From Escherichia phage vB_EcoP_PhAPEC5, in the sequence record NC_024786.1: 64,000 nucleotides of DNA; one strand, given 5' to 3'. Of this stretch, positions 26,859 through 27,050 are shown one piece after another. Within the stretch, counting starts at the first letter, position 1; the number at the start of each line of letters is the position of its first letter. Both the position numbers and the translations under genes were made by a program. The notes below the pieces were generated by a model, which saw only the letters and a list, made by a program, of their open reading frames with translations, ran no database searches and was not told the origin of the DNA.

Positions 26859-26924
26859 TCCGGTGTAGGTACTAGTGTCGTGCACGGCATGAGCATTCTG
26901 GTTCGAGTCCAGACGCCGGAACCA
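26859..26924 (+). ncRNA. tRNA-like element (T-arm, acceptor stem, discriminator and CCA) with truncated interior
   Basis: T-arm TCTGG-TTCGAGT-CCAGA; 7-bp acceptor pairing TCCGGTG / CGCCGGA; discriminator A then CCA; only 63 nt, D/anticodon arms do not fold canonically. Confidence 0.3.
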
Positions 26925-26926
26925 AT

Positions 26927-27050
26927 TACCAGTTGCACGAGATGGCTTGACATGTTCAAGTTTGGACTAAGTGTGACACCGCTAGATTGGAGAGCTGCTG
27001 CGGTAAGCTATAGACTCCAACCGGAGGTTCGAATCCTTCACTGGTAACCA
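26927..27050 (+). ncRNA. tRNA-like element with oversized interior (about 121 nt) ending in CCA
   Basis: T-arm GGAGG-TTCGAAT-CCTTC; acceptor TACCAGT / ACTGGTA; discriminator A and CCA; begins 2 nt after the preceding CCA; interior contains extra hairpins. Confidence 0.3.

Follow-up and report, generated by a model that had tools for sequence, protein, structure and literature searches.

Within a 64,000-nucleotide (nt) stretch of the genome of Escherichia phage vB_EcoP_PhAPEC5 (NC_024786.1; the whole stretch is hereafter called the window), two adjacent RNA genes end like transfer RNAs (tRNAs) and have interiors of a different kind. The window belongs to an N4-like podovirus of the genus Gamaleyavirus (Schitoviridae). 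The first gene, unit 1, is a minimal tRNA-like RNA gene of 66 nt (26859–26924, + strand), and the second, unit 2, is an expanded tRNA-like RNA gene of 124 nt (26927–27050, + strand); each was delimited by its sequence and by covariation in an alignment of its homologues (A3 and A4, respectively). Judged by comparison of sequences, both are likely to be real, processed, non-decoding RNA genes. A fuller statement, that they are non-decoding tRNA-like RNAs, matured by the tRNA-processing machinery, that serve as mimics, we hold with less assurance, as somewhat more probable than its opposite. By their sequences the units are tRNA-like non-coding RNAs that fall in no Rfam family and have no curated family membership. 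Read in the same way, the decoding half is disabled in both, and neither can decode.

The features on which this reading is built could be read directly in both units. As described in the initial annotation, each unit has a T arm, a 7-bp acceptor pairing, a discriminator A, and an encoded CCA (26922–26924 and 27048–27050). The acceptor pairs in 7/7 positions and is followed by ACCA in both cases, and the T loops fit UUCRANY/UUCGARU. Unit 2 begins 2 nt past the CCA of unit 1, after the spacer AU (26925–26926, + strand), which places a U at position −1 of unit 2. The lengths that had been estimated at about 63 and 121 nt are exactly 63 and 121 nt when counted to the discriminator. Next, we asked how often such an arrangement arises by chance. 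The motif GGTTCRANTCC occurred five times within 26900–27515, compared with 0.21 occurrences expected over the whole window. A composite motif was then defined as a 5/5 T stem, the T-loop pattern, a 7/7 acceptor within 55–135 nt, and NCCA. It had two occurrences in the window, exactly units 1 and 2, while 200 dinucleotide-preserving shuffles of the window gave a mean of 0.005, with a match in 1/200 shuffles.

Standard annotation misses such genes, leaving them blank or labelling them "hypothetical protein" or "tRNA-Undet". Over the window, ARAGORN in default mode and Rfam at gathering score called only a tRNA-Ile and neither of the units, and no transfer-messenger RNA (tmRNA) was called by ARAGORN. 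Covariance-model scoring had been proposed as a check: the tRNA model RF00005 (gathering score 29 bits) matched neither unit at E≤10, even when 501 nt only were searched with lax filters, and Rfam families other than tRNA gave nothing on units 1 or 2 at E≤10. In other phage records, unit 1 was labelled by users of tRNAscan-SE as tRNA-Undet in SPSP, AL25, and Jura and as tRNA-OTHER in KP8, and is unannotated in N4; in every record seen, unit 2 is either unannotated or overlaid by a "hypothetical protein".

Unit 1 lies entirely on the + strand, and all its parts were read from the sequence. Its acceptor pairs UCCGGUG (26859–26865) with CGCCGGA (26914–26920), forming 7 bp that include one U·G. 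The acceptor is followed by the connector UAGGUACUA (26866–26874), a 5-bp inner stem GUGUC/GGCAU (26875–26879/26886–26890) with the loop GUGCAC (26880–26885), a second connector GAGCAU (26891–26896), a T arm made of UCUGG, UUCGAGU, and CCAGA (26897–26913), discriminator A73 (26921), and CCA (26922–26924). Since the connector UAGGUACUA is only 9 nt long, a D stem is impossible. The sequence UAGGUA in unit 1 matches the D-loop AGUAGGUAGA common in canonical phage tRNAs, a match by which G10G11 of unit 1 are probably the G18G19 that lock the tRNA elbow. When run in its mitochondrial mode (D-loop replacement), ARAGORN called exactly 26859–26924, with a two-base "anticodon (gc)".

Searches of phage records, IMG/VR, and metagenomes yielded 11 distinct homologues of unit 1 (alignment A3), which span four genera: Enquatrovirus (N4 included), Gamaleyavirus, Kaypoctavirus, and Efbeekayvirus. 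The model comprising the acceptor, the 5-bp inner stem, and the T arm was paired in 98.9% of the alignment cells, as compared with 23–46% for slid controls. Five pairs changed on both sides, and the observed values were reached in 0–1/500 shuffles. In the T stem, UCUGG/CCAGA became GUUGG/CCAAC in KP8 and CCUGG/CCAGG in cp20. In the inner stem, UGUC/GGCA became CGUC/GGCG, UGUU/GACA, CGUU/AACG, or CCCU/AGGG. The wobble U6·G67 of the acceptor is replaced by C6/A67 in cp20. The connector UAGGUACUA was invariant across the homologues. The loop is the 6-nt GUGCAC in all coliphage copies, with one variant, GUGCCC, in Bas96, and the 7-nt GUGCACA in Klebsiella phages.

In unit 2, also on the + strand, the acceptor UACCAGU/ACUGGUA (26927–26933/27040–27046) is paired in 7/7 positions. 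Between its strands, the predicted structure has a long arm A of 40 nt (26935–26974) consisting of a D-stem-like base and a hairpin, a single-stranded 12-nt linker GACACCGCUAGA (26975–26986) at the place of the anticodon arm, and a variable-arm-like long arm B of 34 nt (26987–27020). These are followed in the sequence by CC (27021–27022) and a T arm of GGAGG, UUCGAAU, and CCUUC (27023–27039), and, beyond the acceptor, by discriminator A73 (27047) and CCA (27048–27050). The claim that the interiors of the two units are non-standard thus held, given that unit 1 lacks a D stem and has a loop of 6 nt and that unit 2 lacks an anticodon arm.

All 12 distinct homologues of unit 2 (alignment A4) were exactly 124 nt long, with zero insertions or deletions (indels), and 99.8% of the alignment cells were paired. 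Changes on both sides were found in three consecutive acceptor pairs, one T-stem pair, and one hairpin pair, and 0–4/500 shuffles reached the observed values. The acceptor UACCAGU/ACUGGUA appeared as UAUCAGU/ACUGAUA and as UACUGGU/ACCAGUA; the T-stem pair changed from A-U to G-C and the hairpin pair from U-A to C-G. Across three phage genera, positions 38–96 varied at a single A/G site, position 67. The consensus resembles a cloverleaf, with enlarged D and variable arms, no anticodon arm, and a D-loop-type GG motif kept in AGAUGGC. A covariance model of unit 2 (R1) scored 155 bits on unit 2 itself; the next-best matches, which included the canonical tRNA-Ser(UGA) of N4 and cp20, scored 27–29 bits. 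In the R1 alignment, arm B, which ends 2 nt before the T stem, aligned with the variable arm of the N4 and cp20 tRNA-Ser; the pairs of arm B were invariant.

The likeness of unit 2 to the class II tRNA-Ser(UGA) of N4-type phages extends to shared motifs. Both have the pattern UUG-NNNN-AGAnGGC (UUG-CACG-AGAUGGC in unit 2 vs UUG-UCAG-AGAGGCC in N4), and both have a junction of a long arm, 1–2 nt, and GGAGGUUCGAAUCCUUCAC; with the tRNA-Ser of N4, unit 2 shares the junction CUCC..CGGAGGUUCGAAUCCUUCAC. Unlike tRNA-Ser(UGA), unit 2 has the linker GACACCGCUAGA in place of the anticodon arm, a hairpin inserted into the D loop, a variable-arm-like arm of twice the length, and an acceptor of unrelated sequence. 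When the units were aligned globally to the 50 distinct canonical tRNAs of the loci under comparison, no one tRNA stood out convincingly as the parent of unit 1. Taken with the D-loop match in unit 1, the tRNA-Ser match in unit 2 suggests that both units descended from real tRNAs.

No alternative boundaries gave a standard cloverleaf that holds, and the relaxed ARAGORN calls contradict the covarying pairs. At the 80% threshold, a tRNA-Thr (26848–26920) and a tRNA-Tyr (26977–27050) were called; both have poor acceptors and clash with covarying pairs. A third call at this threshold, a tRNA-Ala at 27069–27150 (− strand), was dropped for poor acceptor pairing. With the -i option, a tRNA-Pro(tgg) with an 82-nt intron was called at 26870–27050; its acceptor pairing is poor, and it spans two cassettes that occur apart. 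Finally, relaxed ARAGORN proposed a permuted tmRNA across both units, with the tag AGTNYQLHEMA*. The junction that it requires is absent in KP8, and it has no G3·U70. The proposal that the units are minimal and expanded tRNA mimics rather than decoding tRNAs was supported by every computational test, where "mimic" is a structural statement only.

The genomic position of the units is that of a tRNA cluster. They lie in a non-coding RNA island that extends from ~25940 to 27793 (~1.85 kb), contains no credible open reading frame (ORF), and is located between gp47-like genes and a gp49/66-family gene. In N4-type phages this is the position of the tRNA cluster, so that the earlier description of a polycistronic tRNA-type cluster is borne out by the genomic site, which the units share with the canonical tRNAs of N4 and its relatives; comparison with the tRNA clusters of these phages, a further check that had been suggested, thus placed the units at the canonical site with helices that covary. 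In phage SPSP, the cluster order is Asn, Ser, Thr, "tRNA-Undet(nnn)" (the homologue of unit 1), and Pro. CCA is encoded in all canonical tRNAs of N4. The number of canonical tRNAs is four to six in N4 and KP8, and only one in the PhAPEC5 window. The 2-nt spacers with U at −1 give units 1 and 2 a layout like that of a tRNA operon.

The two units are also inherited separately. N4 has unit 1 without unit 2; PhAPEC7, Mimir124, F22, and E20 have unit 2 without unit 1; and in KP8 the order is reversed. The cassette breakpoints fall at 26918–26927, i.e., at the unit boundaries, and both units are followed by a conserved trailer, ACCAAUU, of which a few Klebsiella-phage homologues have variants (AAUC/AAAU and AUUA). 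Unit 1 is preceded by a conserved leader (26790–26858, + strand) containing the hairpin GCCAGG-UGGAAUC-CCUGGC (26834–26852) and the spacer AACUAU, which places a U at −1. The leader (65 nt) and unit 1 form one conserved block (26795–26927) with 94% identity to N4 and 88% to KP8. For N4, this 94% contrasts with 67–85% for the neighboring genes; for KP8, the units are 88–89% identical, compared with 67–70% for the neighboring genes. Based on this sequence evidence, units 1 and 2 are independently mobile, selected genes.

The leader hairpin was invariant among the leader-bearing homologues save for one loop substitution (locus L029); the cp20-type sequences have no leader. The leader is a module that can be separated from unit 1, since it is present, and unit 1 absent, in VTCCBPA_322 and in 15 E. 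coli prophage regions. We also considered whether the units are a host-derived tRNA or an att fragment. A blastn search of 5,426 E. coli genomes gave matches to the leader (26795–26853) alone and never to the units, and this candidate was rejected. Homologues of the units were found in N4-like phages only, both by blastn against 50,697 phage records and by pattern scans for divergent homologues of unit 1 or 2 (three in IMG/VR and one in metagenomes). When the IMG/VR pattern was loosened, most of the matches were canonical tRNAs with the same D-loop motif. Among 185,579 species genomes (one per bacterial species), a pattern scan found no copy of unit 1.

Several points weigh against the interpretation of the units as processed, non-decoding mimics. 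Thermodynamics alone does not pick the tRNA-like fold: in unit 1 it has −19.4 kcal/mol vs −24.5 kcal/mol for the minimum free energy structure, the T-arm pair probability is 0.38, and units 1 and 2 have z-scores of −1.98 and −0.41, respectively. The case for unit 1 is a comparative one. The alignments are shallow, with 11 and 12 distinct sequences of at least 79% identity; only a few lineages account for the compensatory events, and phylogeny does not enter into the shuffle control. In unit 2, three of the six helices, namely the base of arm A and both parts of arm B, never vary, and are predicted without covariation support. The acceptor stems show none of the checked marks of anticodon-independent aminoacylation (no G3·U70). 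No description of these RNAs was found in the searched literature, although most subscription-journal papers fell outside the search. Finally, the suggestion of a decoy function draws on analogy and on the gene neighborhood.

Among the alternative explanations, the one that survives best is that the units are processing punctuation only, i.e., that they are RNase P and 3′-end signals that cut the transcript, the released pieces being functionless. The modules of the island are all bounded by a tRNA-like end or by a hairpin and NCCA, as where ACGGGGA-A-CCA ends the tmRNA-like module of KP8; the spacers are short and AU-rich, and the cassettes reshuffle at ACCAAU junctions, all of which is in line with this explanation. 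However, an acceptor/T minihelix suffices for RNase P, yet the interior of unit 2 (positions 38–96) is nearly invariant and without an indel. Likewise, unit 1 has a covarying inner stem, no variation in the connector UAGGUACUA, and a GUGCAC loop with a single variant (GUGCCC in Bas96), and unit 3, a further tRNA-like gene of the island described below, keeps four internal hairpins by covariation. We consider punctuation alone unlikely.

An improbable explanation is that the units are decaying tRNA pseudogenes, remnants of a once-canonical cluster that were kept by recency or hitch-hiking. It would accommodate the single canonical tRNA found here, as against four to six in N4 and KP8, the resemblance of both units to tRNAs after deletions or insertions, and the labels "tRNA-Pseudo" or "tRNA-OTHER" that annotators use for related elements. 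Decay is hard to reconcile with the compensatory double changes that keep the variable helices paired (98.9% and 99.8% of the cells), with a conservation of the units above that of neighboring protein genes, and with the retention of unit 1 in four genera and the lack of indels in unit 2 across 12 variants.

Quite improbable, too, is a split trans-translation device, in which unit 1, unit 2, or both would supply the tRNA-like domain for an upstream tag RNA. A tmRNA-like module encoding the tag ANEEAYLMVA* indeed lies 360 nt upstream in the same island, and with its acceptor, T arm, stemless D loop, and short helix, unit 1 is built like the tRNA-like domain of a tmRNA. But both acceptors are self-closed, leaving no pairing with a coding RNA as in two-piece tmRNAs, and both units have C3-G70 and no G3·U70. 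Nor do the elements travel together: N4 has unit 1 without the tag module, HK620, Bas80, and KNP4 have the tag module without the units, and VTCCBPA_322 has unit 2 without the tag. The permuted-tmRNA call of ARAGORN runs through the junction absent in KP8.

It is very improbable that the units are unusual decoding tRNAs, unit 1 a D-arm-less tRNA-Cys (GCA) and unit 2 a tRNA from which an insertion or intron is removed. In the Klebsiella-phage copies of unit 1, the 7-nt loop GUGCACA has a U at the place of U33 and GCA at 34–36, and ARAGORN in mitochondrial mode accepts the architecture; in unit 2, the interior of arm B ends with CUAUAGA, 7 nt that look like an anticodon loop. In all coliphage copies, PhAPEC5 and N4 included, the loop has 6 nt, and position 37 would be C and position 32 G. 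The discriminator of unit 1 is A, whereas the E. coli cysteinyl-tRNA synthetase (CysRS) requires U73. In unit 2, the one hairpin loop that varies (26951–26955) varies freely, and nowhere does a 5-bp stem close a 7-nt loop. To our knowledge, E. coli has no small-intron splicing pathway, and neither unit gives any score with the tRNA model. That the region instead encodes protein, as an ATG-initiated ORF across both units (26829–27047; 72 aa) and the hypothetical proteins annotated here in UE-S5a and Bas96 might suggest, has a negligible probability, given the frame-shifting spacer indels of 1, 2, and 3 nt among homologues (CUA, UUAA, UCUA, CUUUAA) and a 1-nt loop indel, the separate occurrence of the two halves of the ORF in other phages, and substitutions that track base-pairing rather than codon positions.

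We next compared the units with known systems. With canonical tRNAs (RF00005) and the CCA-encoding cluster of N4, both share the 7-bp acceptor, the 5-bp T stem, the UUCGARU loop, A73, the encoded CCA, and U(−1); with the canonical tRNAs of N4-type phages, they also share the tandem layout, spacers of 2–5 nt, the genomic site, and the D-loop GG motif (UAGGUA in unit 1; AGAUGGC in unit 2). The departures from canonical tRNAs are, in unit 1, the missing D stem and the 6-nt loop and, in unit 2, the missing anticodon arm and the length of 124 nt. A D arm is found in neither unit (in unit 2 a 40-nt composite arm stands in its place), neither has an anticodon arm with 5 bp, a 7-nt loop, U33, and a purine at 37, and neither attains the 29-bit model score.

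Mitochondrial tRNAs that lack the D arm are known from nematodes and from mammals (mt-tRNA-Ser(AGY)). Unit 1 is like them in its short connector in place of the D arm and in its size of ~63 nt; it differs in that its loop in coliphages has 6 and not 7 nt, its T arm is fully canonical, and it belongs to a phage of a bacterium that uses full-size tRNAs. The units are like the tRNA-like domain of tmRNA in that they are non-decoding and have an acceptor and a T arm, which in unit 1 are joined, together with a stemless D loop, to a helix that is not an anticodon helix. They differ from it by having no G3·U70 (C3-G70 is invariant in unit 1, and C-G/U-A covaries in unit 2), an acceptor that closes locally, no mRNA-like part, and no co-occurrence with the tag module. 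mascRNA-type tRNA-like RNAs (3′ ends of MALAT1/MEN-beta; the Rfam family mascRNA-menRNA) are freed by the tRNA-processing machinery, end in CCA, and do not decode. Their logic is like that of the units, but they are eukaryotic, their CCA is added post-transcriptionally, and they have no sequence relation to the units. The tRNA cluster of phage T4 contains the stable RNAs "species 1" and "species 2" (rnaC and rnaD), which are co-encoded and co-processed with tRNAs. The context of these non-tRNA stable RNAs is like that of the units; no similarity between the two was detected, as the blastn search of the 50,697 phage records with the units had given N4-like phages only.

RNase P of E. coli recognizes the coaxial acceptor/T stack and a 3′ RCCA and prefers U at −1, and all three of these substrate determinants are present in the sequences of both units. 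From these established rules and the encoded CCA, the following path of maturation can be proposed. Transcription of the island would yield a single polycistronic, non-coding RNA (~1.85 kb) reaching to the terminator at 27762–27793. RNase P would cut it 5′ of U26859 and U26927, the cues being the RCCA end, U(−1), and the 12 bp of stacked acceptor and T stem. Exonucleases would trim the 3′ ends to the encoded CCA, and the products would be stable RNAs ~66 and ~124 nt in length. With the elbow and acceptor end of a genuine tRNA on display, these products could act in trans as a competitor, decoy, or cofactor for a factor recognizing this half of the molecule, the most plausible target being a host tRNA-targeting defense or a tRNA-handling enzyme.

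Phage tRNA clusters are usually read as supplements to codon usage and, more recently, as replacements for tRNAs destroyed by host defenses. Here, three genes of the cluster keep only the half of the tRNA that is seen by enzymes and toxins, and they are still under purifying selection in four genera, N4 included. Since the decoding half was lost and the recognized half was selected, the evidence points to a tRNA-related function of the units outside translation. A role as decoy or competitor is put forward tentatively, by analogy, and is itself less likely than not. It was ranked first among the possible roles because of the analogy with work on tRNA-cleaving immunity, in which phage tRNA loci are treated as supplements or decoys against tRNA-cleaving defenses (PMC13096335), and because of the gene neighborhood.

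Downstream of the island, a gene at 28441–28956 (+ strand) encodes a Tad2-like (Thoeris anti-defence 2) domain (PF11195, 86.5 bits), and its proximity places the island in an accessory, counter-defense neighborhood. It is preceded by a gene of the N4 gp49/Sf6 gp66 family (27957–28349). Further along, a 3577-aa ORF (28995–39728, − strand) occupies the place of the N4 virion RNA polymerase gene. The closest matches of the island are Mimir124 and PhAPEC7, with ~95% identity across 83% of the island. The island is closed by an intrinsic terminator (27762–27793, + strand), a 13-bp stem followed by a T run, which was found by a terminator scan; PhAPEC7 annotates the same element.

The sole canonical tRNA of the island is a tRNA-Ile with the anticodon AAU (27453–27526, + strand), called by ARAGORN at 27452–27530 and scored at 62.4 bits by RF00005. 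It has A at position 34, which is unusual among bacteria. Its anticodon arm is close to that of a CAU tRNA (Met or Ile2-type) of phage Bas80, and PhAPEC7 labels it tRNA-Xle. Between this tRNA and the terminator there is a conserved non-coding block (27525–27668) with 77% identity to N4 and 89% to KP8 and a closing helix CAGCAG..GCUGCU.

The 1.85-kb island also holds further conserved structured RNAs without an Rfam family. A third non-canonical tRNA-like gene, unit 3 (27147–27260, + strand; 112 nt to the discriminator), was delineated with RNAalifold. It has a T-arm-like hairpin (27168–27182), a GUAA-capped hairpin (27185–27200), and another hairpin (27203–27217), followed by a canonical T arm (27234–27250). 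Its acceptor has 6 bp with a conserved 7:66 mismatch, and its A at 27258 is followed by CC only; the homologues end in ACC(U/A/C) and not in CCA. In the RNAalifold analysis of 10 distinct homologues, 12 of the 29 predicted pairs had compensatory changes on both sides. The single Rfam match to unit 3, tRNA-Sec at 15.3 bits, was not significant.

Other elements of this type were seen in relatives. Just before the tRNA-Ile, relatives of the IME11, UE-S5a, and ST4 types have a 76-nt tRNA-like gene (L017 1256–1331, − strand; L001 2195–2270; L003 1985–2057) that is absent from the PhAPEC5 window. Its acceptor is UACCCAG/CUGGGUA-A-CCA, its "anticodon" loop is AAACCA (6 nt), and its annotation is tRNA-OTHER or tRNA-Thr. 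In N4 (L007 1594–1693), unit 1 is followed by a T arm of UUAGG, UUCGAAU, and CCUAA on a ~19-bp stem (AAGAACUCUUAUUUUGGUU/AACCAGAGUAAGAGUUCUU), with no CCA. Together with unit 3, these elements make non-decoding tRNA derivatives a recurring product of the locus.

The tmRNA-like module upstream of the units (26335–26583, + strand) is a separate cassette and no part of them; it has no tRNA-like domain and was delimited by a sub-threshold match to RF04321 (27.1 bits) and by alignments. It begins with a 15-bp helix (26335–26349/26402–26416) that covaries among phages and has a hypervariable apex. A conserved AUAAAU is followed by the tag-like ORF (26467–26499), GCA AAC GAA GAA GCG UAU CUG AUG GUC GCC UAA, and then by a pseudoknot-like hairpin and a 3′ hairpin; the latter precedes A/G-CCA in many relatives. 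Other phages have the tags ANDDVVLMAA* (the last two Ala codons being GCA GCC, GCT GCT, or GCG GCG), ANNETYLMVA*, ANEEMYLAVA* (HK620), and ANDNAYLMVA* (KNP4). Among Rfam families, only RF04321, "permuted tmRNA", matched the module, at a sub-threshold 27–33 bits (gathering 47), and ARAGORN was silent. Homologues were found in 421 phage records from unrelated groups (N4-like phages, the P22-like HK620, Bas80-type siphoviruses, and Ackermannviridae); the copy in HK620 lies between pR'/qut and the late terminator. In bacterial species genomes, a pattern scan found no copy, and in two papers on ViI-like phages, tmRNA is named only within an ARAGORN citation.

A more speculative view, which we regard as doubtful, is that units 1–3 and the tag RNA form a modular "RNA arsenal", whose cassettes would be exchanged among unrelated enterobacterial phages and whose tRNA-like members would be decoys or cofactors released by RNase P. 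If so, the exchange would reach across N4-like podoviruses, the P22-like HK620, Dhillonvirus-type siphoviruses, and Vi01-like myoviruses. An elbow and a CCA without an anticodon might then neutralize host factors sensing or attacking tRNA, among them defense toxins that recognize the acceptor end or the elbow, or might alter ribosome rescue together with the tmRNA-like RNA, which has no tRNA-like domain of its own.

Three long covarying helices (26335–26416, ~26586–26679, and 27058–27127) have apical segments of 40–65 nt that are wholly different between related phages. They look like processing stems around exchangeable "cargo". The helix 3′ of unit 2 (27058–27066/27119–27127) has 9 conserved bp and a hypervariable apex. 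In the first helix, the apical cargo of ~47 nt (26351–26397) is pseudoknot-like (GUGGA..UCCAC), with a loop GGCC that is complementary to a downstream GGCC; it has 87–92% identity to Vi01-like myoviruses and to a stand-alone element in the tRNA cluster of Klebsiella phage cp20.

The leader of unit 1 (26795–26853) was found with 86–88% identity in 15 E. coli chromosomes in the blastn search of 5,426 E. coli genomes. In PT62 (L034 1501–1558), the copy is in a part of the prophage, between the genes for portal and terminase, that is non-coding and has no annotation. What comes after the leader there is a long helix (ACACAACAGGAAAGAGCA...) that resembles 26586–26679 of the window, and not unit 1.

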